Positions 1 to 35,899 of a stretch of DNA of 35,899 nt are shown here, piece by piece. A program made the position numbers and the translations under genes. Where the stretch lies: IMG/VR virus record IMGVR_UViG_3300017747_002940, positions 1-35,899 of that record; one strand, 5' to 3'. Origin of the DNA: a virus. Its lineage: Duplodnaviria; Caudoviricetes. Numbering within the stretch: position 1 is the first letter of the stretch; every line of letters starts with the position of its first letter. Below the pieces are notes generated by a model that was given only the letters and a program-made list of their open reading frames with translations, made no database searches and was not told the DNA's origin.

Positions 1-123
1 CAGTCTGCGAAGTTCCCGTTGGTCTTCTTGTCCCAAACCAGCACGCAACTCGTCGGCGGCAAGCTGTAGTAGTTGCCGCCGAAGATGATCTGATGCTGCG
101 CCTTTGCACGCATCAAGCCAATC
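1..123. repeat. Terminal direct repeat, copy 1 (circular assembly overlap)
   Basis: 1-123 is identical to 35777-35899, and a methyltransferase ORF reads in frame across the join. Confidence 0.95.
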
Positions 124-356
124 AGCCAATCGGCCGGCACGTCGGCATCCCATGTCGTTTGCGCGTAGATGCGTTTAGCCACACGGCGGTGCCCGTGGCC
201 CACCACAGTGCCGCTCGCTTTGTGCGCGGCAGCATCTGCGCCAATCCCGTAGGGCGGGTCCGTCAGCAGCAAGTCATGTGCAGGCAGCAGCGGCAGCACC
301 TCGCGGCAGTCCCCGTGCCACAGTTCCGCGTTCCCGATCACTACTTTCTCAGCCAT
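1..356 (-). CDS. DNA adenine-N6/cytosine-N4 methyltransferase, N-terminal part (continues at 35776-35422; about 236 aa in total)
   Basis: Manual translation from ATG 356 gives MAEKVVIGNAELWHGDCREVLPLLPAHDLLLTDPPYGIG (DPPY catalytic motif). It joins ORF 35422..35892, which carries LDPFMGSGTTG. Alternative in-frame ATG at 362. Confidence 0.9.
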   Translation of the reverse strand, partial: MAEKVVIGNAELWHGDCREVLPLLPAHDLLLTDPPYGIGADAAAHKASGTVVGHGHRRVAKRIYAQTTWDADVPADWLIGLMRAKAQHQIIFGGNYYSLPPTSCVLVWDKKTNGNFAD

Positions 357-358
357 CT

Positions 359-451
359 TCATCCTTTGTTGGTGCGCCACCAGTGAAACCTAACCCCTCG
401 GTCAACCGGAGAGCCCACGGCAAGTGTGGTGGCGTTATCAGGCTTTGTCAT
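359..451 (-). CDS. Leader peptide starting inside attC-like site (MTKPDNATTLAVGSPVDRGVRFHWWRTNKG)
   Basis: GGAG upstream of ATG 451 within the attC; its stop TGA overlaps the MTase ATG at 362 (ATGA). Confidence 0.5.
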   Translation of the reverse strand: MTKPDNATTLAVGSPVDRGVRFHWWRTNKG

Positions 452-483
452 GGGTGGTCTCCCGGTTACCTCGAACGTTAGGC
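388..483 (+). mobile_element. attC-like site 2 (96 bp)
   Basis: ACCTAAC-CCCTC-GGTCAACC...GGTTACC-TCGAAC-GTTAGGC. Confidence 0.9.
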
Positions 484-755
484 GGACGCAAATACCGGCG
501 CCCGTGGCCTCTCTGCTTTTCAGCCAAGAAAAACTCTGCGTCCTTGTTGACGCAGCCGCCGTCCGGGTCAAGAAACCACCAAGCATCTGTGAAGTCGTCA
601 GAAATCAGCGGCGCCCGCGTCTTCCAGTCGCACTTCACGGCCAGCACATAGCGGCGGCGGTTTGCCGTGGCATGGGCCACGATGAGAAACAGCCACCACG
701 AGTCTTCGGCCTCGTTTGTCGCTGCCCAGTAATCACCTGCTTTTATGTGACTCAT
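438..755 (-). CDS. Hypothetical cassette protein
   Basis: GAGG RBS upstream; C-terminus PNVRGNRETTHDKA is read from the neighbouring attC. Confidence 0.7.
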   Translation of the reverse strand: MSHIKAGDYWAATNEAEDSWWLFLIVAHATANRRRYVLAVKCDWKTRAPLISDDFTDAWWFLDPDGGCVNKDAEFFLAEKQRGHGRRYLRPPNVRGNRETTHDKA

Positions 756-781
756 GCGTTTCCTCGTTTGTCCACAGCGCC

Positions 782-839
782 GCCTAACCCATCGCTCAAC
801 TTGACCGCCTACGGCGGCAAGTTAGCTCGAACGTTAGGC
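782..839 (+). mobile_element. attC-like site 3 (58 bp)
   Basis: GCCTAAC-CCATC-GCTCAACT...AGTTAGC-TCGAAC-GTTAGGC. Confidence 0.92.
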
Positions 840-840
840 G

Positions 841-1074
841 TCAGCATTGAGCGCAATAAGCAAGACGGCCAGCGTGCGTCAGTTCGTAGCCAGATACAGT
901 GCAAGGCCACGGGCTATGCCCTACGCGCATTTCCGTTTTGCGAAGAAATCCTTCGTTTACCAATTTGTCAGCTAACTTCGATTTTGTCTGCATCAGATGC
1001 ACGCCTTTTGTAAGCGCGGCATTTACCTCTGCGTCAAACGCTTTTTCAAGCAATGCAAGTTCTCTTGAGTTCAT
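841..1074 (-). CDS. Hypothetical cassette protein (possible winged helix)
   Basis: MNSRELALLEKAF...YELTHAGR; AGGA RBS; fills the cassette. Confidence 0.7.
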   Translation of the reverse strand: MNSRELALLEKAFDAEVNAALTKGVHLMQTKSKLADKLVNEGFLRKTEMRVGHSPWPCTVSGYELTHAGRLAYCAQC

Positions 1075-1095
1075 TCCTATTTCCCTTCTGAGCCA

Positions 1096-1146
1096 GCCTA
1101 ACAGCCCGGTCAAGCCGACCTTCGGCGGCTTACCTAATCGTTGGGC
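1096..1146 (+). mobile_element. attC-like site 4 (51 bp)
   Basis: GCCTAAC-AGCCC-GGTCAAGC...GCTTACC-TAATC-GTTGGGC. Confidence 0.88.
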
Positions 1147-1388
1147 GTCTTTCCCGGCGCCCGCATCTTTTGTGTTGGCACGGCTTGCACAAACACGGCG
1201 AACAACTCAATTCCAGCCTCCCTCATCATCCTGTCGGTGGGTGCCCTTCGCCCGCTAGTAACTGTGGTCACAAACGTCGGCGTGATCCCCCAGTGCCGGG
1301 CGGCAGCAGCTTGCGTGCCGTGCACAGACTGAATGTGTGCAAGCACCATGACGCCTAGTTGCCGCTTCAGTTCGTCCGCAATCTTCAT
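1134..1388 (-). CDS. Small HTH (Cro/XRE-like) cassette protein
   Basis: GTQAAAARHWGITPTFVTTVTSGRRAP resembles a Cro/XRE HTH. Confidence 0.65.
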   Translation of the reverse strand: MKIADELKRQLGVMVLAHIQSVHGTQAAAARHWGITPTFVTTVTSGRRAPTDRMMREAGIELFAVFVQAVPTQKMRAPGKTPND

Positions 1389-1410
1389 TCTGTGCCTTCG
1401 TTCGCCAGCC

Positions 1411-1468
1411 GCCCAACCCCCGCATGCAGCGGAGCCCCTACGGCGCCCGCTGATGCTGGCCGTTAGGC
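1411..1468 (+). mobile_element. attC-like site 5 (58 bp)
   Basis: GCCCAAC-CCCCG-CATGCAGC...GCTGATG-CTGGCC-GTTAGGC. Confidence 0.88.
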
Positions 1469-1744
1469 CCCATACCCGGCGCGCTGACTATCAATCAGGT
1501 CTGCCACCATCTGTGCGTCATCGCCGCATGCTTTGAACAGCGCATCGGTTAGCACGCGAAGTTCTGCGTCTTGCGCCCTCACCAGTGCAGCCCAGCGTTT
1601 GCGCTTGCCGGCCCATGTCTGGTTTATCGTGTCGTCCAGTTCGCGCAGCACGGCATCGCGCGTGGGGCCTAACCCCTCGCTCAAGCCGAGCCCCAACAGC
1701 GGATCAGGCTGCTGTGGCGTGTCGGTAGCTTTGTCGTCATTCAT
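1463..1744 (-). CDS. Hypothetical cassette protein starting inside attC loop
   Basis: GGAG RBS and ATG 1744 lie within attC 6; stop TAA lies in the R' box at 1463. Confidence 0.7.
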   Translation of the reverse strand: MNDDKATDTPQQPDPLLGLGLSEGLGPTRDAVLRELDDTINQTWAGKRKRWAALVRAQDAELRVLTDALFKACGDDAQMVADLIDSQRAGYGA

Positions 1745-1789
1745 GCTTCTTCTCCCGCTGTTGTGTCCGGCTTAGCTCGAACGTTAGGC
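1667..1789 (+). mobile_element. attC-like site 6 (123 bp)
   Basis: GCCTAAC-CCCTC-GCTCAAGC...GCTTAGC-TCGAAC-GTTAGGC. Confidence 0.9.
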
Positions 1790-2119
1790 GTCAAAGTCCA
1801 GCGCCTTTTGCATGCGTGTCATGGATGCTTCCGGCTCGGGGTGCTTGTGTGCCGTACACAGCTCTTCAATGATGCCAATTGCCTCACGCAACGCCTGATC
1901 AAGCATGTCACGGTGCGCCTGAAGATCGGCCATCGTATGTTGCGCGTACTCCAGCGCCTTGGCCGGGTTGCACGCGCTGCAACCGTCTCCCAACAGGTAC
2001 TGCGTAAACGTGCATTTGCATCCGGTCGTGGCGTTGACGCCTAACCCCAAATTCGACTTGAGAGCCAACGGCGTGTTGGCGGGCGTAGCGTCGTGCGCTT
2101 CGGTTGGTTTCGTGGTCAT
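1784..2119 (-). CDS. Hypothetical cassette protein with Cys motif, starting inside attC loop
   Basis: CKCTFTQYLLGDGCSACNP; ATG 2119 in attC 7; stop in R' box at 1784. Confidence 0.7.
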   Translation of the reverse strand: MTTKPTEAHDATPANTPLALKSNLGLGVNATTGCKCTFTQYLLGDGCSACNPAKALEYAQHTMADLQAHRDMLDQALREAIGIIEELCTAHKHPEPEASMTRMQKALDFDA

Positions 2120-2152
2120 CGCGTTGTCTCAAAGTCAATTTGAACGTTATGC
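2039..2152 (+). mobile_element. attC-like site 7 (114 bp)
   Basis: GCCTAAC-CCCAA-ATTCGACT...AGTCAAT-TTGAAC-GTTATGC. Confidence 0.85.
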
Positions 2153-2156
2153 AGCA

Positions 2157-2480
2157 TCAAAACAGGTCCGCCGTCATCGCCGCAGCTTTGCGGGTGGCGT
2201 AGGCGGTGCGCTTGTGGTGCTCGGCGTCATAGGTCAGGTGGCACCGCTGGCACATCGCCTTGAGGTTGTGCGCGTCGCAGTTCTCAGGCGTGTGGTCCAG
2301 ATGCGCCACAGTCAGCACAACCCGCGATCCGGTCACCGGGTGCAGCGTGCCATTGGCTGCTCGGCAGTCCGGGTATGCCGGCGAACCTTCACACAGTTGG
2401 TGCGCTCGCTCGCGAATCGCGTCAGCAATGCGCTTCCAGTCCTTCGGGTAGCGCGCTTTGTTTTCCGGTCGTATCGGCAT
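2157..2480 (-). CDS. HNH-like endonuclease cassette protein
   Basis: LTVAHLDHTPENCDAHNLKAMCQRCH HNH motif; AAGGTG RBS. Confidence 0.8.
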   Translation of the reverse strand: MPIRPENKARYPKDWKRIADAIRERAHQLCEGSPAYPDCRAANGTLHPVTGSRVVLTVAHLDHTPENCDAHNLKAMCQRCHLTYDAEHHKRTAYATRKAAAMTADLF

Positions 2481-2502
2481 ATGTTCACCTTTCACCAATG
2501 CT

Positions 2503-2611
2503 GCATAACCATTCGCTCAACCGGACCCATTGCGGCGTGCCGCCATTTGGGCTAAACACATAGCCCAAATGCCGTCCCGCCGCAACGGTCCGGTTAGCTC
2601 AAACGTTAGGC
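2503..2611 (+). mobile_element. attC-like site 8 (109 bp, long internal stem)
   Basis: GCATAAC-CATTC-GCTCAACC...GGTTAGC-TCAAAC-GTTAGGC; inner ATTTGGGCTA/TAGCCCAAAT stem. Confidence 0.9.
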
Positions 2612-2613
2612 GC

Positions 2614-2856
2614 TCAGTAGTCCACGCCGATCACAAGCGGCCCCATGTGCAGGTACACCATGCACCAGCCCTGAGCGTAGGTCGTCACGAGCCGCCAGCG
2701 CTTCGGGCCGCGGCCGGGCCAGTCGCCCCAGTGCCAAGTCCAGTGACCGCGAGTTGCAGCAATCCAGCATTCGCGCAGCCATCCACCGCCGCGCCTAACC
2801 CCTCGCTCAACCTGACCCAAATGGGCAGGCGCCGCCGTCTTGTGTTCATGCTTCAT
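2614..2856 (-). CDS. Hypothetical Trp-rich cassette protein starting inside attC loop
   Basis: ATG 2856 in attC 9; N-terminal GQVERGVRR is the attC L''/R'' read antisense. Confidence 0.6.
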   Translation of the reverse strand: MKHEHKTAAPAHLGQVERGVRRGGGWLRECWIAATRGHWTWHWGDWPGRGPKRWRLVTTYAQGWCMVYLHMGPLVIGVDY

Positions 2857-2894
2857 CTGCTGCCCCTTTGGTCAGGTTAGCTCAAACGTTAGGC
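2793..2894 (+). mobile_element. attC-like site 9 (102 bp)
   Basis: GCCTAAC-CCCTC-GCTCAACC...GGTTAGC-TCAAAC-GTTAGGC. Confidence 0.9.
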
Positions 2895-3139
2895 CCTTCA
2901 ATCGGCGGGTACACAAACTCGCGCGTGCCGTTCTGGCGTAGCGGAGTGATGACCCCCTGCCGCTCAAAGTGCTCCAGAATCCGCGCCGCTTGGTTGTAGC
3001 CAATCCGCAGATTCCGCTGCAAGAAGGTAAGCGTTATCCGGCCTGGGTTCGCAAGCAACAGCGCCAGCGCGTCGTCTATGTGCTGTGCCGTCACCAGCGA
3101 CAGGCCGGGCCGGTTCTCTATCGGTGTCAGTTCAATCAT
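2882..3139 (-). CDS. Stand-alone FtsK gamma-domain protein (cassette)
   Basis: ITLTFLQRNLRIGYNQAARILEHFERQGVITP...NGTREF matches the FtsK gamma winged-helix signature (LQRxxRIGYNRAARLIE). Confidence 0.85.
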   Translation of the reverse strand: MIELTPIENRPGLSLVTAQHIDDALALLLANPGRITLTFLQRNLRIGYNQAARILEHFERQGVITPLRQNGTREFVYPPIEGPNV

Positions 3140-3161
3140 CTGCTCGCTCCGGTTACAACGG

Positions 3162-3227
3162 GCCTAACCCGTCGTCCGACCTGACAGCCCCGGCAAGCCG
3201 GGTCTGCAGGCCGACTCTGCGTTAGGG
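3162..3227 (+). mobile_element. attC-like site 10 (66 bp)
   Basis: GCCTAAC-CCGTC-GTCCGACC...GGCCGAC-TCTGC-GTTAGGG (one L-box mismatch). Confidence 0.8.
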
Positions 3228-3589
3228 CTGTAGTGGCGCACCACCGCCATCAATTCATCCTCTGTCGGCGGGCGTGGCGGTTGGTCGCTGAACAGCAACC
3301 ACGCGCCTTCAGTTCGGCCCCGGCTCTTGTACCAAGTCACCCATAACGCCAGCGCGCCGCCTGCGCCTTCAACGTTGTCAACTTGCACCGTCGCGTACTT
3401 CTGATCTTCGCAATATCGGTAATCCACGCCGCTCGGCATCGGGCTTTGGCCTTCGTACACCAGATCGCGCAGTGCGTTCACGCTGGCGCAGTTCCAGTTT
3501 TCGGCGTGGAACGCGCCCCGCTTAAAGGCGCACGTTGGGTCGTCGCCGGGCCAGGTCTTGCCACGCTTCTTGCACTCTTCACAGTTCAT
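3164..3589 (-). CDS. Hypothetical cassette protein
   Basis: GGAG RBS; MNCEECKKRGKTW...WYKSRGRTE; reads through the whole of attC 10. Confidence 0.75.
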   Translation of the reverse strand: MNCEECKKRGKTWPGDDPTCAFKRGAFHAENWNCASVNALRDLVYEGQSPMPSGVDYRYCEDQKYATVQVDNVEGAGGALALWVTWYKSRGRTEGAWLLFSDQPPRPPTEDELMAVVRHYSPNAESACRPGLPGLSGRTTG

Positions 3590-3608
3590 CGCGTTTCTCC
3601 AACAACAG

Positions 3609-3668
3609 CCCTAACTACTCGCTCAAGCCGAGCCCGCACGGCGGGCCGGCTTAGCTCGAACGTTAGGC
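3609..3668 (+). mobile_element. attC-like site 11 (60 bp, canonical)
   Basis: CCCTAAC-TACTC-GCTCAAGC-CGAGCCCGCACGGCGGGCCG-GCTTAGC-TCGAAC-GTTAGGC; extra C in L'' and extra A in the stem. Confidence 0.93.
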
Positions 3669-3955
3669 GCTGCAATCCTGTATCGCGCGTACCCGCATTT
3701 TTCAACAATTCCAGCATCCAGCAGCTTGCGCATCGCTTGGTCAACGGAGGTCACCGACACATCAAGCACAACAGCCACCTCGGCCGTCTTCATGGGTGCC
3801 CGGAACTCTGCCAAAGTCAGCAGAATCTTCGCCTGTGTTTTTGGCGGCTTTCCAAGCCTGCCGCCGTGCACGCCGCGCCTAACCTTTCGGTCAAGCAGAG
3901 CGCCAACGGCGGCCACGCCGTCACGCTCCGGGTCAGTCTGTAGCGCCGTTGTCAC
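3623..3955 (-). CDS. Winged-helix DNA-binding cassette protein starting inside attC loop
   Basis: ILLTLAEFRAPMKTAEVAVVLDVSVTSVDQAMRKLLDAGIVEK wHTH pattern; GGAGG RBS then GTG 3955 inside attC 12. Confidence 0.7.
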   Translation of the reverse strand: MTTALQTDPERDGVAAVGALLDRKVRRGVHGGRLGKPPKTQAKILLTLAEFRAPMKTAEVAVVLDVSVTSVDQAMRKLLDAGIVEKCGYARYRIAAPNVRAKPARRAGSA

Positions 3956-3976
3956 CTGCTTACCTCCACGTTAGGC
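3877..3976 (+). mobile_element. attC-like site 12 (100 bp)
   Basis: GCCTAAC-CTTTC-GGTCAAGC...GCTTACC-TCCAC-GTTAGGC. Confidence 0.88.
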
Positions 3977-3989
3977 ATCACAAAACCCG

Positions 3990-4286
3990 CTAAGCACGTT
4001 CCGCTGCAATGGCCGCGTCCAGCAGTTCGCGCAGCGGGCCAGGCCGGTATGCGGCATCCTTGTAGTGCTCGTCCCAGTCATCCCAGCCAGTGCCGTTCTC
4101 GTCCACGGCCACGCACCACGCGGCCAGCATGGCAATGGCAATGTCGCGCTCCTTCACCAGTTCCTCGCGCTCATCGGCGCGGCCTTCGGCGTAGGCTTCC
4201 TCCAGCGTCGGGGGCAGCACGTTCGCCAGTTCAGCGGCTTCTTCGGTGTTCAGGCCGTCAGGCGGCTGGAAATTGTCGTGGCTCAT
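3990..4286 (-). CDS. Hypothetical cassette protein
   Basis: AAGGA RBS; NGTGWDDWDEHYKDAAYRPGPLRELLD. Confidence 0.75.
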   Translation of the reverse strand: MSHDNFQPPDGLNTEEAAELANVLPPTLEEAYAEGRADEREELVKERDIAIAMLAAWCVAVDENGTGWDDWDEHYKDAAYRPGPLRELLDAAIAAERA

Positions 4287-4316
4287 ATCGTCCTTTCGTT
4301 GTTCGTCAACAGTGAT

Positions 4317-4374
4317 GCCTAACCCCGCAATTCAAGCCGACCGGCGTACCGGCGGCTTAATTGCAACGTAAGGC
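4317..4374 (+). mobile_element. attC-like site 13 (58 bp; R' is GTAAGGC instead of GTTAGGC)
   Basis: GCCTAAC-CCCGCA-ATTCAAGC...GCTTAAT-TGCAAC-GTAAGGC. Confidence 0.85.
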
Positions 4375-4620
4375 GCTTACCGGCACGCTAGCAAAGGCAT
4401 GCTCGCAGCAGCTACCCAGCTTCTTCACTGGGAAGCCGCCAATGCCGCAGCGGTTGGCTTGAACGCCGTACTTTTCAACGTCCCACACGCCGGGTTGCTT
4501 CTGAATCCAGGCTGGCAGCGTCATCGTCGCCACGCGGTGCGCGCAGTTTCCGCACACGCCAGCGATCAACCTTGGCGTGTACTGCTGCGCCTCAATGGCG
4601 GCTTTGTGTTTCTTGCTCAT
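4357..4620 (-). CDS. Hypothetical Cys-rich cassette protein
   Basis: CGNCAH...RCGIGGFPVKKLGSCCEH; GAGG RBS. Confidence 0.75.
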   Translation of the reverse strand: MSKKHKAAIEAQQYTPRLIAGVCGNCAHRVATMTLPAWIQKQPGVWDVEKYGVQANRCGIGGFPVKKLGSCCEHAFASVPVSALRCN

Positions 4621-4649
4621 GCTTGCTTCCCCTCGTTTATCAACCACGC

Positions 4650-4709
4650 GCCTAACCCCTCGCTCAAGCGGGACCGCCTGACGGCGGCCCCTTAGCTCGA
4701 ACGTTAGGC
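4650..4709 (+). mobile_element. attC-like site 14 (60 bp)
   Basis: GCCTAAC-CCCTC-GCTCAAGC...CCTTAGC-TCGAAC-GTTAGGC. Confidence 0.9.
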
Positions 4710-4710
4710 A

Positions 4711-5055
4711 TCACTGAATACGCACCGTGCGGCCGCCGTGGCGCAGAACTTCACCACGCTCGCCAATGGTCACCGGGTCGTCGCGGTGTACGCGCAGCGC
4801 CTGCTTGATCGCTGTCTCTGCGTTGCGCTGGTACTTGTCATACTCGGCTTGCAAGCGCTTCAACTTGTCGGCGGCCTCGCGCTCGATTTCGCCTATGCGG
4901 TCGCTCCGCGGCGGCGAGTAAAACGCCATGCCGTAGTGCTCATGCCCGCCTTCTGCGCCGCCAGCCAAGCAGTCAAGCTGCTCTGGCGTCAGCTTCAGGC
5001 CGCACTCGTCTGCGGCTTCGGCGATGCAATCTTTCCAATAGTCACTGTTGCTCAT
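4711..5055 (-). CDS. Hypothetical cassette protein
   Basis: MSNSDYWKDCIAEAADECG...HEHYGMAFYSPP; AGGA RBS. Confidence 0.75.
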   Translation of the reverse strand: MSNSDYWKDCIAEAADECGLKLTPEQLDCLAGGAEGGHEHYGMAFYSPPRSDRIGEIEREAADKLKRLQAEYDKYQRNAETAIKQALRVHRDDPVTIGERGEVLRHGGRTVRIQ

Positions 5056-5078
5056 ATTCGTCCTATCGTTGTAGTGAT

Positions 5079-5179
5079 GCCTAACCCCGCAATTCAAGCG
5101 GAGGCCCAACGGCATCAGCTTTGGTGGCTTCTTCGTACATGGTCACGCCGTTGGTCTCCGCTTAATTGCAACGTTAAGC
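5079..5179 (+). mobile_element. attC-like site 15 (101 bp; last of array)
   Basis: GCCTAAC-CCCGCA-ATTCAAGC...GCTTAAT-TGCAAC-GTTAAGC. Confidence 0.88.
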
Positions 5180-5979: not shown

Positions 5980-6473
5980 TTAATCGCCAGCCTCCAACCT
6001 TGCGCCAGCGTCACGCCCGGGATGTCTGCACCGCCTTGAATTGCGGTCTTCAGAAGCGCTTTGTCCGGTTCTGGCTCTGGCGCAGGCTTTTGACGCATGT
6101 ATTGCGCAGGAATTACGGCGCCGTCTGCAATCTGTACGGCTGGCGGCTTCTTTGCTATCTTTGCCGCCCATTCGTCGGTTGCAATCTCTGTTGTTCCCGT
6201 CGTCTGCATGTGTGTGAGTGCGTATTCCCGCAAAGCCTCTGCACGGCTGTCCAACGTTTTTGCGCGGTCGGCCATGCGCTTTGCTGCATCCTTGGCGCCA
6301 CCGGCCAAAATGTCAAGTTCCAAGCCATACGCGATGACTGCGCGCAACTTGTCGTGCAAGTCCCCCTGTAGGCTTTCTATGGTGTCGCGCACCACTTCGA
6401 CGGGCATGTCTACGTCTGCCAGTTCGGCAAGCTGGGTGCGGTATTCGGCTGCAATGTGAAAAAGGGCGGTCAT
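5976..6473 (-). CDS. Siphovirus Gp157-like protein
   Basis: Coiled coil then KIAKKPPAVQI...IPAQYM...PEPDKALLKTAIQGGADIPGVTL; sits next to the SSAP as is typical. Confidence 0.8.
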   Translation of the reverse strand: MTALFHIAAEYRTQLAELADVDMPVEVVRDTIESLQGDLHDKLRAVIAYGLELDILAGGAKDAAKRMADRAKTLDSRAEALREYALTHMQTTGTTEIATDEWAAKIAKKPPAVQIADGAVIPAQYMRQKPAPEPEPDKALLKTAIQGGADIPGVTLAQGWRLAIK

Positions 6474-7105
6474 GTTGTCACTTTCTGGACTTTCGCCATC
6501 TTGGTTGCTTGTGCTGCAAGAAATTGGCTTTCAGCATCGCCGTCGTTTTCAGCGCGGGCTTCTTCAATGGCTTCGTGTGTCAATCGCTTGCACTCGCCCA
6601 CGGTCGGCGAAAACTGGATTGCCTCCAGCCACGCGGCCAGCCATTGCGCACGATCCGGGCTGTCTGTGCGTGGCTCGTCGGCATGCAAATCTCCTTTGTG
6701 CCACAAGTCCAGCGCCGCACCGAAGCGCATGGCGGCATTGCGCAGAGCATCCCCAATGCGCTCCTTCATGGCGGCTGGGCCGGTCTTGCCTTCAGCGTCC
6801 CCGTAGCCCATGCGCGTAACCCCGCAGATGGTAAGGCGAATCCACAAGCCCCCATTGCTGTCCAGCTTGGGCAAGCCATCCCCGTCAAAGGCCACCGGCG
6901 CCCATGTCCAAGTGGGGTCGGTGTCCAGCAGTCGATCCGTTAAAGCTGCGTGGCCCACGTAATCAAGGTGCATGGCCGGCAGCCCGTGATAGCCACCGCA
7001 CTCTGGACAGTTGCCCTTAGGTGAGTCTTTTTTGTACGGCTTGGGTAGCTTGCTGATTTGGTGCGCAGGAAAGGGGGTGCGCAGAAGTTGCAATTTGTCG
7101 CTCAT
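6470..7105 (-). CDS. Rad52/Rad22 (Sak-like) single-strand annealing protein
   Basis: LDYVGHAALTDRL...KERIGDALRNAAMRFGAALDLW resembles the Rad52-family motif. Confidence 0.75.
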   Translation of the reverse strand: MSDKLQLLRTPFPAHQISKLPKPYKKDSPKGNCPECGGYHGLPAMHLDYVGHAALTDRLLDTDPTWTWAPVAFDGDGLPKLDSNGGLWIRLTICGVTRMGYGDAEGKTGPAAMKERIGDALRNAAMRFGAALDLWHKGDLHADEPRTDSPDRAQWLAAWLEAIQFSPTVGECKRLTHEAIEEARAENDGDAESQFLAAQATKMAKVQKVTT

Positions 7106-7868: not shown

Positions 7869-7897
7869 ACTGTGCCCGGATTCGGTGAGGCTGTCAA
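7869..7897 (-). promoter_or_regulatory. Leftward early promoter candidate
   Basis: TTGACA-17 bp-CACAGT on the minus strand. Confidence 0.55.
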
Positions 7898-8771: not shown

Positions 8772-8892
8772 CATCCATTGCTTGGCGGCGAAGGATGCAG
8801 TCATGAGGCCACTAGCTCATGCGTTCTGTGGGGGGGAAACCCCTCAACGCCGCCAAGCACAGAACGCAGCAGCTAGTGGCCTTTTTGTTTTT
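8772..8892 (+). ncRNA. Structured leader RNA / attenuator upstream of replication initiator
   Basis: Long stem 8806-8830 pairing with 8858-8882 followed by a T-run; 11-nt complement 8780-8790 / 8848-8858. Confidence 0.6.
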
Positions 8893-33069: not shown

Positions 33070-33485
33070 TAAACAGCCGCAAGCTCGAAGACCTGCACCC
33101 CAAGATTGCAGCCAAGGCCCAGGCATTCCGCGATGCATGCGCGGCACAAGGCATCGACGCTCTGATTACCAGCACGTACCGCGACAACGAATCTCAGGCG
33201 GCGATCTATGCACAAGGGCGCACAGCACCTGGCAGCATAGTCACCAACGCAAGGCCCGGTGAGTCTTGGCATAACTGGCGATGCGCTTTTGACTTTGTGC
33301 CCATCGTCGGTGGCAAGTGTCAATGGAAAGACTCTGACCTGTTCACGCGCTGCGGCGTCATTGCCGAGTCGGTCGGCTTGGAGTGGGCAGGGCGCTGGAC
33401 AGGGAAACTCCGTGAGGCTGCGCATTGCCAGTACACAGGCGGGCTGACGCTTGCGGACTTTCGCGCAGGGAAGACGCTGACATGA
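33066..33485 (+). CDS. Endolysin, M15 family peptidase
   Basis: TYRDNESQAAIYAQGRT...SWHNWRCAFD...WAGRW...EAAHCQ. Confidence 0.9.
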   Translation: MINSRKLEDLHPKIAAKAQAFRDACAAQGIDALITSTYRDNESQAAIYAQGRTAPGSIVTNARPGESWHNWRCAFDFVPIVGGKCQWKDSDLFTRCGVIAESVGLEWAGRWTGKLREAAHCQYTGGLTLADFRAGKTLT

Positions 33486-33685
33486 TCCGCAGCATGCTTG
33501 ACGGCGCTGGCGGACGGCGCTTTGCCGTCACCATTGGGGCTGGCCTTGTCACCAGCATTCTGCAATGGTTCGGCAAGTTGGACGTGGCGGGCACCGCATA
33601 TGCCGCTGTAGTCATCGGCACCGTGGGCGCTTATATTGCCGGCAACACAACACAAAAAATCAAAGCGCCGGATGGCACGCAATGA
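33482..33685 (+). CDS. Putative holin
   Basis: 67 aa with two TM segments after the endolysin. Confidence 0.65.
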   Translation: MIRSMLDGAGGRRFAVTIGAGLVTSILQWFGKLDVAGTAYAAVVIGTVGAYIAGNTTQKIKAPDGTQ

Positions 33686-34107
33686 GCGTGCAAGCCATCT
33701 TGGCGATTGCGCTGCTGGCAAGCGCCGTCGCTACCGGATGGTACGGGCGCGACGTGATTGCAGACCGTGACACAGCCCAAGCGCTGGCCGAACAAACCGC
33801 CGCCATCAGCCGCCGCGCCATGCGCGTGCAGGAGACATCAGATGCTGCATACCTTCAGGCCCAGGCCCGCGTTGCTGCTGTGCGCCGCGCTGATGCTACT
33901 GGCAACGGGCTGCGCGTCGCCGCCGAAGCCCTTGCCGCCCCCGAACCTACCGACCAGTGCGAAACAGCCGCCGCCCGACTTCAGGTGTTTGCCGACGTGC
34001 TTGGAGGCGTGGAGTCAGAAGGCCGAGAAATGGCGCGCATCGCTGACGAACGCGGCGAAGCCGGCACTGCCTGCGAGCGCATCGCAGGCAATCAATTAGC
34101 GCCGTGA
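33682..34107 (+). CDS. i-spanin (Rz-like)
   Basis: N-terminal TM, coiled coil, C-terminal ADERGEAGTACE. Confidence 0.75.
   Translation: MSVQAILAIALLASAVATGWYGRDVIADRDTAQALAEQTAAISRRAMRVQETSDAAYLQAQARVAAVRRADATGNGLRVAAEALAAPEPTDQCETAAARLQVFADVLGGVESEGREMARIADERGEAGTACERIAGNQLAP
33842..34099 (+). CDS. o-spanin (Rz1-like lipoprotein) embedded in Rz
   Basis: Lipobox LATG-C then Pro-rich segment, in the +1 frame inside the i-spanin. Confidence 0.75.
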   Translation: MLHTFRPRPALLLCAALMLLATGCASPPKPLPPPNLPTSAKQPPPDFRCLPTCLEAWSQKAEKWRASLTNAAKPALPASASQAIN

Positions 34108-34127
34108 ACGCATGACTGCCTAACAAC

Positions 34128-34187
34128 GTATAGCTATGTATAGCCATGTATATCACAAGCAGCTTAGACAATACCTGCACATGGCTA
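34128..34187. repeat. 10-bp tandem repeats plus inverted repeat at the late/early convergence point
   Basis: GTATAGCTAT GTATAGCCAT GTATA; TAGCCATGT (34141) / ACATGGCTA (34179). Confidence 0.6.
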
Positions 34188-34189
34188 GC

Positions 34190-34582
34190 TTAAGGTGTCG
34201 GGTGCAAAGTGGCGTCAAGCAGTACATCCAGTTCGTCGCGCGGCGTGTAGCCCTCATCGCGCCGCCAATCAGCCAGCGTGGAAACACTAGGCCTGGGCTT
34301 GATGCGCTTGCGCACTTCCACGCCAATCTGGGTTGCCGACAGCAGGCCGACGATCTCCCCGTCGATCATGGTTGCATGCTGGTCACAGCGGCCATGAGTA
34401 GGCACGTACACCTGCACAGTGACGGTCTGCCAATGCGACAACGGTTCAGGGCCTGCATACGCTGGCGGCAGTGCAGAAGCCAATGCCTCACGGCGCGCAT
34501 CCTCAGCAGCCCTGCGGCGGCGTTTGGCGGGTATTGTGTTTGCGTGCGCCCATCGGCCGCGGTGGTGGCTGCGACTGTGCAT
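34190..34582 (-). CDS. Hypothetical protein (last early gene, outside the array)
   Basis: ORF 34190..34588, ATG at 34582. Confidence 0.6.
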   Translation of the reverse strand: MHSRSHHRGRWAHANTIPAKRRRRAAEDARREALASALPPAYAGPEPLSHWQTVTVQVYVPTHGRCDQHATMIDGEIVGLLSATQIGVEVRKRIKPRPSVSTLADWRRDEGYTPRDELDVLLDATLHPTP

Positions 34583-34584
34583 AG

Positions 34585-35337
34585 TCAAGGTATGGACAAG
34601 TTATGCGTGTTCCGCGTGCCAGCAGTCAGCAGGCGCCAGGCTGCGGCGGCAACCTGCGGCACCTGTCCATTGCCAAGAGCTTTCACGCGGGCCTTGTCCA
34701 GTGGGGTTGCCACCCCATCAACCACTCTAGCCACGTCGGGTTCGGAACCCCACGCAGCCAGTCCTTCAAGTTGGAGCATCCGCCTTTCGTCTTCGCTCGC
34801 GCCAGCGCGGCCTCTGAGCGTGCGCCCATCGCGTCCATGCAGTTTGGAGTGGGCAGCAATCCAGATTCGTTCCCTTCGATGCTTGGCGCCAAGCTCGGCA
34901 GCTCCCAGCACTCCCCATTGCGCATCAAACCCCAGCGCGGCCAGGTCTGCAAGGACAGTTCCAAGTCCTCGAACAGCGAGCATTGGGCTGTTCTCCACAA
35001 AGACGAACTCGGGTCCAACCTCGCCAACGATTCGGGCCATTTCTCGCCACATGCCGCTGCGCTCTCCGTCCAGGCCTTTGCCTTTCCCGGCTGCGCTGAT
35101 GTCCTGGCACGGAAACCCGCCCGAAACCACATCAATAGTGCCGCGCCAAGGTCTTCCGTCAAAGGTGCGAACGTCATCCCAAATTGGGAAAGGCGGGAGT
35201 GCGCCTTCATTCTGGCGGGCGGCAAGTAGCCCAGCGGCGAAGGGGTTCCACTCAACGGCACAGACAGTGCGCCACCCGACGAGCTTGCCGCCGAGTATTC
35301 CGCCACCAGCGCCCGCGAAAAGAGCCAACTCATTCAT
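34585..35337 (-). CDS. DNA cytosine-C5 methyltransferase, alpha-like chain (cassette 1)
   Basis: LFAGAGG (motif I), GGFPCQD (IV), VENS (VI), HRRERIW (VIII), ALGNG (X). Confidence 0.9.
   Translation of the reverse strand: MNELALFAGAGGGILGGKLVGWRTVCAVEWNPFAAGLLAARQNEGALPPFPIWDDVRTFDGRPWRGTIDVVSGGFPCQDISAAGKGKGLDGERSGMWREMARIVGEVGPEFVFVENSPMLAVRGLGTVLADLAALGFDAQWGVLGAAELGAKHRRERIWIAAHSKLHGRDGRTLRGRAGASEDERRMLQLEGLAAWGSEPDVARVVDGVATPLDKARVKALGNGQVPQVAAAAWRLLTAGTRNTHNLSIP
34600..34610 (+). mobile_element. Left boundary of cassette array (G|TTATGC R box with no upstream hairpin)
   Basis: GTTATGCGTGT is the reverse complement of ACACGCATAAC at 35359-35369. Confidence 0.75.
34683..35333 (-). CDS. 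Overlapping alternative-frame ORF, C5-MTase beta-like chain
   Basis: 216-aa open frame inside the MTase ending PNPTWLEWLMGWQPHWT (motif IX-like); ATG 4 nt from the alpha ATG behind the same GGAG. Confidence 0.7.
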   Translation of the reverse strand: MSWLFSRALVAEYSAASSSGGALSVPLSGTPSPLGYLPPARMKAHSRLSQFGMTFAPLTEDLGAALLMWFRAGFRARTSAQPGKAKAWTESAAACGEKWPESLARLDPSSSLWRTAQCSLFEDLELSLQTWPRWGLMRNGECWELPSLAPSIEGNESGLLPTPNCMDAMGARSEAALARAKTKGGCSNLKDWLRGVPNPTWLEWLMGWQPHWTRPA

Positions 35338-35362
35338 ACATCTCCACGCTTCGGAACCACAC

Positions 35363-35420
35363 GCATAACCCCTCGCTCGAACCGACCGCCTACGGCGGCG
35401 GTTCAGCTCGAACGTTAGGT
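35363..35420 (+). mobile_element. attC-like site 1 (58 bp)
   Basis: GCATAAC-CCCTC-GCTCGAAC...GTTCAGC-TCGAAC-GTTAGGT. Confidence 0.92.
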
Positions 35421-35421
35421 T

Positions 35422-35899
35422 TCACAACAGCCCCTCCTGCACAGGCTGTCTGGTTTTTTCGGGCGGTAGTAGCGTGCCCTGAGCCTGGGCGCGGCTGATG
35501 CGCTCGCAGGCGATGTCGAAATACTTGCGCTCGCGCTCGATGCCGGTGAACGCCTTTCCAAGCTGGGCGCATGCCACGCCTGTCGTGCCGCTGCCCATGA
35601 AGGGGTCAAGCACCATGTCAACGTCATCAGGCGCCTGCTGTATTGCCCACGCCAACACCTTGATGGGCTTCTGTGTTGGGTGGTCGAAGCGTTCTTCGCC
35701 GCCTTCGCGTGCAAACCCGTTCCACAGGCATTCAATCCTGCGCACCGCCGTTGATAGGTTCGTCCAAGCAAGTTCACAGTCTGCGAAGTTCCCGTTGGTC
35801 TTCTTGTCCCAAACCAGCACGCAACTCGTCGGCGGCAAGCTGTAGTAGTTGCCGCCGAAGATGATCTGATGCTGCGCCTTTGCACGCATCAAGCCAATC
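35422..35899 (-). CDS. DNA N6/N4 methyltransferase, C-terminal part (cassette 2)
   Basis: HPTQKP, VLDPFMGSGTTGVA, GIERERKYFDIACERI. Confidence 0.9.
   Translation of the reverse strand, partial: IGLMRAKAQHQIIFGGNYYSLPPTSCVLVWDKKTNGNFADCELAWTNLSTAVRRIECLWNGFAREGGEERFDHPTQKPIKVLAWAIQQAPDDVDMVLDPFMGSGTTGVACAQLGKAFTGIERERKYFDIACERISRAQAQGTLLPPEKTRQPVQEGLL
35777..35899. repeat. Terminal direct repeat, copy 2
   Basis: Identical to 1-123. Confidence 0.95.

Follow-up and report, generated by a model that had tools for sequence, protein, structure and literature searches.

Cassette genes on the bottom strand of an attC array in a circular phage genome

The integron model treats the polarity of its cassettes, in which each gene precedes its attC recombination site, as essential. 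IMG/VR virus record IMGVR_UViG_3300017747_002940 (35,899 nucleotides; this whole stretch is called the window), a complete circular phage genome of 35.8 kb with a 123-nt terminal repeat (1-123), raises the question of whether gene and attC can be uncoupled in orientation, as it carries attC-like sites whose genes appear to face the opposite way. Analysis of the window and of related loci indicates that the locus is very probably a phage cassette array without an integrase, consisting of an attI-like site and 15 attC sites, with the genes on the attC bottom strand, likely shuffled by an integron integrase (IntI) acting in trans and likely expressed from a leftward early transcript.

The 15 attC-like sites run from 35363 through the origin to 5179, with a bare R' box in front of them at 34600. 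The first-pass annotation had named the bare R box at 34600 as the start and the full hairpin at 5079 as the end; the extent that it gave, 388-5179, is too narrow, because the array crosses the origin of the circular genome. The features are as follows (an arrow marks a crossover point; labels beginning with L or G denote viral or bacterial loci or records compared, and those beginning with X denote sequencing runs).

34560-34606 (left limit approximate), plus strand: attI-like site, a putative primary insertion point, with its crossover G↓TT at 34600/34601
34190-34579, minus strand: open reading frame (ORF) behind the attI-like site, with homologs in the same place in L009 and L047
34585-35337, minus strand: cassette 1 gene, C5-cytosine DNA methyltransferase (PF00145, phrog_363)
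35363-35420, plus strand: attC 1, 58 nt, top strand plus
35422-35899, minus strand: cassette 2 gene, 3' part, N6/N4 DNA methyltransferase (PF01555, phrog_67), spanning the origin
1-356, minus strand: cassette 2 gene, 5' part (phrog_67), start at 356; 1-123 is the terminal repeat
388-483, plus strand: attC 2, from anatomy and detector
438-755, minus strand: cassette 3 gene, 105 amino acids (aa), reading into attC 2, without family match
782-839, plus strand: attC 3, whose body also stands on unrelated genes in other phages
841-1074, minus strand: cassette 4 gene, 77 aa (phrog_2239, E 1.9e-14), weak codon score
1096-1146, plus strand: attC 4, from anatomy and detector
1134-1388, minus strand: cassette 5 gene, 84 aa, located after cassette 12 in a related phage
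1411-1468, plus strand: attC 5, extra base G, from anatomy and detector
1463-1744, minus strand: cassette 6 gene, ribosome-binding site (RBS) and ATG inside attC 6
1667-1789, plus strand: attC 6, 123 nt, gene start in its loop
1784-2119, minus strand: cassette 7 gene (phrog_12238, E 1e-4), ATG inside attC 7, Shine-Dalgarno (SD) motif not clear
2039-2152, plus strand: attC 7, from anatomy and detector
2157-2480, minus strand: cassette 8 gene, HNH endonuclease (phrog_1571), with an 87% identical cassette in L006
2503-2611, plus strand: attC 8, from anatomy and detector
2614-2856, minus strand: cassette 9 gene, start inside attC 9, without family match
2793-2894, plus strand: attC 9, from anatomy and detector
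2882-3139, minus strand: cassette 10 gene, stand-alone FtsK gamma domain (PF09397), which reads FtsK-orienting polar sequences (KOPS)
3162-3227, plus strand: attC 10, from anatomy and detector
3164-3589, minus strand: cassette 11 gene, 141 aa, running through most of attC 10
3609-3668, plus strand: attC 11, from anatomy and detector
3623-3955, minus strand: cassette 12 gene, winged helix-turn-helix (PF01022), start inside attC 12
3877-3976, plus strand: attC 12, crossover at G↓TT in a related phage
3990-4286, minus strand: cassette 13 gene, 98 aa, from ORF analysis
4317-4374, plus strand: attC 13, variant R' with third base A
4357-4620, minus strand: cassette 14 gene, 87 aa; cassette 4369-4703 is exactly missing in a related phage
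4650-4709, plus strand: attC 14, from anatomy and detector
4711-5055, minus strand: cassette 15 gene, 114 aa (phrog_21617, E 2e-43)
5079-5179, plus strand: attC 15, the last site, its R' overlapping the stop of the upstream early gene
7869-7897, minus strand: candidate leftward early promoter, from sequence only

All 15 sites possess inverted R''/R' and L''/L' boxes with spacers of 5-6 nt, one of them with a variant R', and L'' pairs with L' at 7 of 7 positions in 13 sites and at 6 of 7 in the other two. The extra base of L'' (position 4) lies on the plus strand in every site, as noted at first pass, being C in 14 and G in one; the accompanying claim of a second bulged A on the left arm of the plus strand stands in part, as this is the best fit in 10 sites (with a right-arm bulge tying in three) and the remaining five have another base or an unclear one. 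Because the bulged bases lie on the plus strand, plus is the top strand; the extrahelical bases on the L'' arm mark minus as the bottom strand, as in an attC. The minus strand has the more stable fold in 13 of the 15 sites, and bottom strands of attC have been reported to fold more stably (Nivina 2016, PMC5027507). A strand-symmetric detector called 14 sites, every one with plus as the top strand, and missed 4317-4374, which has the variant R'; in 40 dinucleotide shuffles of the whole window it called no site in 37 and one site in three. The same detector called three controls (a class 1 integron, Shewanella phage M16-3 and phage TJE1) gene-before-attC, and left the published P12002L sites uncalled. 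Complementarity between cassette ends continues past the 7-nt box, with a mean of 4.1 matches at positions 8-14 for cognate ends versus 1.9 for non-cognate ends. With its same-strand attC sites (at least two being needed) and no intI, the array belongs to the clusters of attC sites lacking an integrase (CALINs).

All 15 cassette genes are on the minus strand, opposite to the attC top strand, as the first-pass annotation stated, and 8 of them have a PHROG or Pfam match: two methyltransferases, the HNH endonuclease, the FtsK gamma domain, the winged helix-turn-helix protein and three PHROG families of unknown function. A canonical cassette carries its gene on the top strand, with the attC downstream of it; here 15 of 15 are on the bottom strand. 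Every cassette contains a minus-strand ORF; 11 of these ORFs, which have an SD-like motif, begin 19-31 nt behind R'', and the other four start inside an attC (attC 6, 7, 9 and 12). Against Pfam, none of 16 plus-strand ORFs has a match (the PHROG scan did not include these 16). The candidate promoter, read from 7897 to 7869, has a perfect -35 element, a 17-nt spacer and a -10 element matching at 3 of 6 positions; a consensus promoter scan did not list it.

Since bulges merely predict polarity, natural joints between cassettes were sought in sequencing runs. A contig of run X2, with 3 differences from the window over ~1.4 kb, joins 4364 to 4700 through 5 shared letters that span G↓T of R'; cassette 14 is gone together with attC 14, at the 5' end of its gene, and attC 13, at the 3' end, is retained. 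A contig of run X5 joins 3968 to 1139 with 4 shared letters across G↓TT, so that cassette 12 with attC 12 is followed by cassette 5. A comparison of pairs of loci that share a cassette gene agrees: among viral pairs the attC body is unchanged in 8 of 12 that have the gene to its left (top strand) in common and in 1 of 16 that have the right-hand gene in common, and the bacterial control gives 8 of 12 and 1 of 10, respectively. The joints and the pair test both place the crossover at G↓TT of R', as expected of attC. Thus, the attC that moves along with a gene is the one at the gene's 5' end, and, as read from these sequences, the recombination geometry is canonical and the cargo is inverted. 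Phage CALINs have already been published (Qi 2023, PMC9892861); what this window adds is natural, base-precise joints of excision and reordering among its own cassettes.

The tabulation of ORF against attC orientation in phages and chromosomes that the first-pass annotation proposed supports its interpretation. An 18-letter attC motif retrieved viral contigs and chromosomal arrays, the latter largely of Burkholderiales, and a looser pattern added other attC types; de-duplicated intervals of up to 1.3 kb between same-strand sites were counted, and the strand was called with a codon model validated on PHROGs, as the longest ORF alone is a poor guide in GC-rich DNA. Among the matches listed, to which all counts of this comparison apply, 263 of 285 viral cassettes are reversed, 2 canonical, 19 uncalled and 1 ambiguous, whereas 113 of 222 bacterial cassettes are canonical, 15 reversed, 82 uncalled and 12 ambiguous. 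Counted by locus (several of which can share one contig), the reversed layout predominates in 102 of 105 viral loci; of 68 bacterial loci, 48 are mostly canonical and 5 reversed. The reversed polarity holds throughout some 100 viral loci that vary in attC type and have G+C fractions of 0.39-0.72. Bottom-strand ORFs of viral cassettes match PHROGs in 14 of 56 cases and top-strand ORFs in 0 of 56 (a sample of 56 from the 133 eligible cassettes, with no more than two taken per locus). When 80 loci were chosen by their annealing protein rather than by attC, 9 had a site and in 8 of these the bottom strand was the sense strand; most such phages therefore lack an array within the stretch fetched. 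Canonical phage arrays also exist (TJE1 and M16-3, with one canonical call each in L442 and L474). Together, the natural crossovers, the shared-cassette test and this tabulation bear out the proposal of a distinct cassette class in which attC comes ahead of the gene: the reversed layout is a variant of the integron cassette system that is widespread in phages.

The 15 reversed bacterial calls comprise 6 on two short contigs with phage-like genes, 3 of phage type in long host arrays, and a remainder that is weak or contains several genes. The phage-type reversed cassettes within host chromosomal arrays, two in L172 and one in L180, face against the direction of the array, which is what the earlier idea that such cassettes are silent from the host Pc promoter predicts. 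Transcription along the host array would give RNA antisense to these phage genes. The cassettes concerned (L172:9472-11031 and L180:3852-4502) lie in long arrays of Betaproteobacteria and include a methyltransferase that starts inside its own attC; their presence there shows that phage and host arrays exchange cassettes.

An attC in front of a gene can carry the RBS and first codons in its loop, and often does. Of 199 long viral sites, 91 have SD and ATG together in the bottom-strand loop, as do 11 of 249 long bacterial sites and none of 272 short viral sites. The frame of the loop ATG runs at least 40 codons into the gene in 79 of the 91, compared with 66 of 182 control frames, and an SD motif of the gene's own is present in 15 of the 79 loop-fused genes, 11 of 12 genes behind short leaders and 193 of 272 behind short attC. 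One gene stands behind two different attC sites in L022 and L040, with differing N-termini in the same frame. From these patterns we infer that translation initiates at ATGs inside attC loops. A Chi-like octamer follows R'' in 15 of 471 viral sites only.

The integrase of the system would have to come from elsewhere, as no intI stands beside the array in the window and a search for PF00589 tyrosine recombinases found no match in the complete genome. The bare R' at 34600 has its first 11 nt complementary to the R'' flank of the first attC, and similar upstream sequence and a homologous downstream ORF occur in L009 and L047, which have other first cassettes; a conserved site with differing first cassettes would suit an attI that an integrase serves in trans. 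The first-pass annotation, which had recognized the bare box, lacked its attI-like nature, the starts inside attC loops and the phage-encoded IntI of relatives. ORF 34190-34579 starts overlapping the attI-like site, occupies the place of intI in other phages and found no match in PHROG, Pfam and Atlas searches; its arginine-rich N-terminus may resemble those of N-type antiterminators.

Some related phages have a complete integron, comprising IntI, attI and attC array. Among 44 array-bearing viral records, 3 encode an IntI above the TIGR02249 cut-off of 265, at 425-428 bits, two being near-identical; a query with one of the three led to 32 viral IntI loci. In 22 of the 32, attC sites lie upstream with their top strand opposite intI, and the genes upstream are mostly on the intI strand; the relation of top strand to intI holds in 22 of 22, with one extra site in L361 called the other way, so these are not inverted-integrase integrons. 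An attI-like G↓TT that matches the other end of the first cassette lies 31-73 nt before intI in 12 of 15 loci examined, and most of these loci have a heptamer 31 nt upstream, similar to one 32 nt upstream in attI1. A tree was built from 44 rows, with identical rows collapsed and L378, L379, L380, L400, L401 and L402 (short or unmatched) left aside. A single starred clade in this tree unites 24 of 26 viral IntIs, and 15 IntIs of bacterial genomes as well as IntI1 fall outside that clade. A second tyrosine recombinase follows intI in G034, and at several other intI loci the next ORF resembles a phage integrase by its N-terminus. The intI genes of L379 (5250-5512) and L380 (7880-8144) are seemingly deleted internally, keeping the start region and the last 48 residues only; such deletion is a possible route from phage integron to phage CALIN. 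Virus Rctr41k (L383:4668-5639; KX853513) encodes a divergent IntI-like protein collinear with its neighbours, in a locus where a clear array was not detected.

These observations suggest a mechanism. IntI would bind the folded minus strand, cut in R' and excise TTRRRY-gene-R''-L''-loop-L'-G, which would be reinserted at attI or at another attC. The recombinase could be an IntI encoded by the host chromosome or by another phage, either related or co-resident. As judged by attC type, the host probably belongs to the Burkholderiales, since chromosomal arrays there carry the same L'-R' motif. Pc could not express cassette genes on the bottom strand; inversion of the cargo would allow one upstream phage promoter to read cassettes and intI alike, making Pc unneeded, and new cassettes would enter at the promoter-distal end. 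A reversed cassette that moved to a host array would be silent from Pc. If the genes are co-oriented with a leftward replication fork, with which GC skew is compatible though confounded by gene strand, the recombining strand would be part of the lagging-strand template and, in transcription, would serve as the non-template strand, an arrangement that would favour fast turnover; a lagging-template orientation is reported to give higher excision rates (Loot 2017, PMC5371416).

Four other explanations were weighed. One supposes attC-derived repeats that the phage single-strand annealing protein now shuffles on shared attC sequence, without an integrase; the absence of IntI from the window, the annealing protein gene at 6470-7105 (a PHROG match), the near-identical attC bodies on unrelated genes and the body swaps all speak for it. 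It is unlikely, as no more than 4-5 letters are shared at either natural joint, with the R' crossover at their centre, annealing proteins normally need far longer shared sequence than this, and bulges, spacers and inverted cassette flanks are preserved; exchange by the annealing protein may still explain the body swaps. Another holds that the cassettes are conventional, the sites recombining at R'' on the other strand and the bulge rule being misleading. The attC sites are near-palindromic and some reportedly recombine through the top strand at low frequency (Nivina 2016, PMC5027507), but the attC lost with gene 14 in the observed deletion is the one 5' of the gene, the 3' one being retained, the attC body tracks the 5'-adjacent gene, and four genes start inside that attC, which makes this reading very improbable.

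We give equally little credence to an inert remnant, in which host cassettes were captured once and their antisense strand recruited later: the L'-R' motif common to phage and Burkholderiales chromosomal arrays and the existence of captured canonical phage arrays (M16-3) would suit it, whereas the cargo is of phage type (methyltransferases, HNH, PHROG families), cassette order and presence vary among relatives, and a single polarity prevails across the viral loci despite their different attC types and base compositions. That the plus-strand ORFs are the real genes and the array canonical has almost no chance of being correct. Some long plus-strand frames exist, and strand calls by the longest ORF alone favour the top strand in 2 of the 13 intervals of the window and in 52 of the 165 viral cassettes; yet none of the 16 plus-strand ORFs of the window matches Pfam, none of the 56 top-strand ORFs sampled from viral cassettes matches PHROGs, and of the 165 viral cassettes none has SD with ATG at the head of the top strand, compared with 117 that have it at the head of the bottom strand.

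Several points weigh against an integrase-shuffled array of bottom-strand genes, the reading that we prefer. No family match was found for 7 of the 15 cassette genes, and the window itself lacks a recombinase gene. Each natural joint is a single contig at a depth of 6-9, the shared-cassette pairs are non-independent (several involve L003), and the attC body differs in 4 of the 12 viral same-gene pairs. The loci compared were chosen by attC patterns, 94 of the 222 bacterial cassettes are uncalled or ambiguous, and the IntI sample, gathered with a single phage query, is biased. GC skew turns near 7-8 kb, where the gene strand also switches, which confounds fork direction; attC type is the whole basis of the host call; and two RNA runs contain 21-26% of the sampled words as contigs in which strand and level are unreadable, so that neither these nor the placement of one of the runs (X7) on the window was used. 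Finally, 75 pairs of near-identical attC bodies are on unrelated genes. Together with the 4 differing same-gene pairs, they indicate that simple excision and insertion at R' does not account for all exchange, and show that a second, unexplained kind of exchange exists. Near-identical bodies on unrelated genes, found in L003, L025, L056, L009, L058, L097 and others, even twice per array, are possibly traces of cassette creation or of attC exchange, and the identical ones may record ongoing cassette genesis, a process called largely unknown (Loot 2017, PMC5371416). L027 and L042 have in common a long attC body resembling the Rubrivivax chromosomal type.

Phages are known to carry CALINs, often with DNA methyltransferases, and 5 of 6 phage attC sites tested were recombined by IntI1 at G↓TTRRRY, with the bottom strand preferred (Qi et al. 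2023, PMC9892861). That paper terms TJE1 and PH101 typical, and its running text does not describe genes antisense to attC. The detector finds TJE1 and M16-3 canonical and the CALIN of Qi et al. in MW202573 reversed; the same text leaves this reversal unremarked and mentions neither a phage-specific IntI clade nor starts inside attC. Our literature search, whose scope took in neither the majority of subscription journals nor the figures and Dryad files behind Qi et al., found no description of a reversed class.

The phage arrays resemble canonical class 1 and sedentary chromosomal integrons, as portrayed in the sources consulted (PMC5027507, PMC5371416), in the order R''-L''-loop-L'-R', the extrahelical G of the bottom strand, the stabler bottom fold, the crossover at R', the attI at the 5' end of the top strand and the intI opposite the top strand. 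The differences concern the gene, which occupies the bottom strand, follows its attC and runs collinear with intI, and its expression, which would depend on a phage promoter lying upstream rather than on Pc. According to one study, neither mobile nor chromosomal integrons had ever shown a cassette inserted to face the promoter (Nivina 2016, PMC5027507); the phage array has normal insertion polarity and inverted cargo. Integrons of the Treponema type with an inverted integrase likewise have intI and cassette genes on one strand, but there, in the description available, normal cassettes accompany an intI that is inverted with respect to attC, whereas in phage arrays intI is regular and the genes are flipped (Cury 2016, PMC4889954). 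Antisense chromosomal cassettes, such as symE with sRNA-Xcc1 in Xanthomonas (bioRxiv 2025.06.18.660453), and ORF-less cassettes with antisense promoters (PMC8876359) also carry cargo opposite to Pc; as reported, these are isolated exceptions outside Pc control, whereas the phage arrays are wholly reversed and apparently form one operon. A comparison also offers itself for the starts inside attC. The ORF-11 leader of attI1 is a recombination site that gives a translation start to the cassette behind it; ORF-11 sits once, in attI, on the top strand, whereas the phage starts lie in many attC loops, on the bottom strand, and move with the cassette.

Recent work casts integrons as host anti-phage libraries. 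A broader reading, which we hold tentatively and judge to fall a little short of an even chance, is that phages run an integron branch of their own, with a phage IntI clade, attI families of their own and inverted cassettes whose attC acts as a portable RBS and N-terminus, shuffling early accessory genes such as methyltransferases at a high rate and trading them with host integrons, where they lie antisense under Pc. A widespread phage class that keeps the recombination geometry but inverts the cargo, some of its lineages having an integrase of their own, would show phages using the integron machine for accessory and counter-defence genes. Separability of attC polarity from gene polarity would constrain models of cassette genesis, a single short sequence would serve as recombination hairpin and predicted translation start, and annotations that assign a gene to the attC behind it would mis-assign reversed cassettes.

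Other features of the window concern the cassettes and their setting. Six cassette genes (438-755, 1134-1388, 2882-3139, 3164-3589, 3623-3955 and 4357-4620) have no stop inside their own cassette and end in the neighbouring attC; their C-termini therefore change upon cassette reordering. The R' of attC 13 (4368-4374) has A as third base, which leaves the left end of cassette 14 without the usual cleavage triplet. The variant letters recur in an independent contig of run X3, and are thus not an assembly error; the variant may slow the loss of cassette 13 or 14.

The window phage occurs in freshwater metagenomes and encodes terminase, portal, head, lysis, primosomal and annealing-protein genes, with gene strand flipping at ~7.9 kb from minus on the left to plus on the right. 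An Rfam search of the window yielded nothing reaching a gathering score, and blastn of the array against GenBank phages gave partial gene matches only, with no cultured close relative; contigs sought over 33300-35899 left the attI-like site at 34600 uncovered. Between the lysis genes and the ORF at 34190, a lone R''-like box is followed by short imperfect repeats (34118-34160), and a 25-nt inverted repeat, 92% complementary, lies at 8806-8882, just ahead of the primosomal gene.

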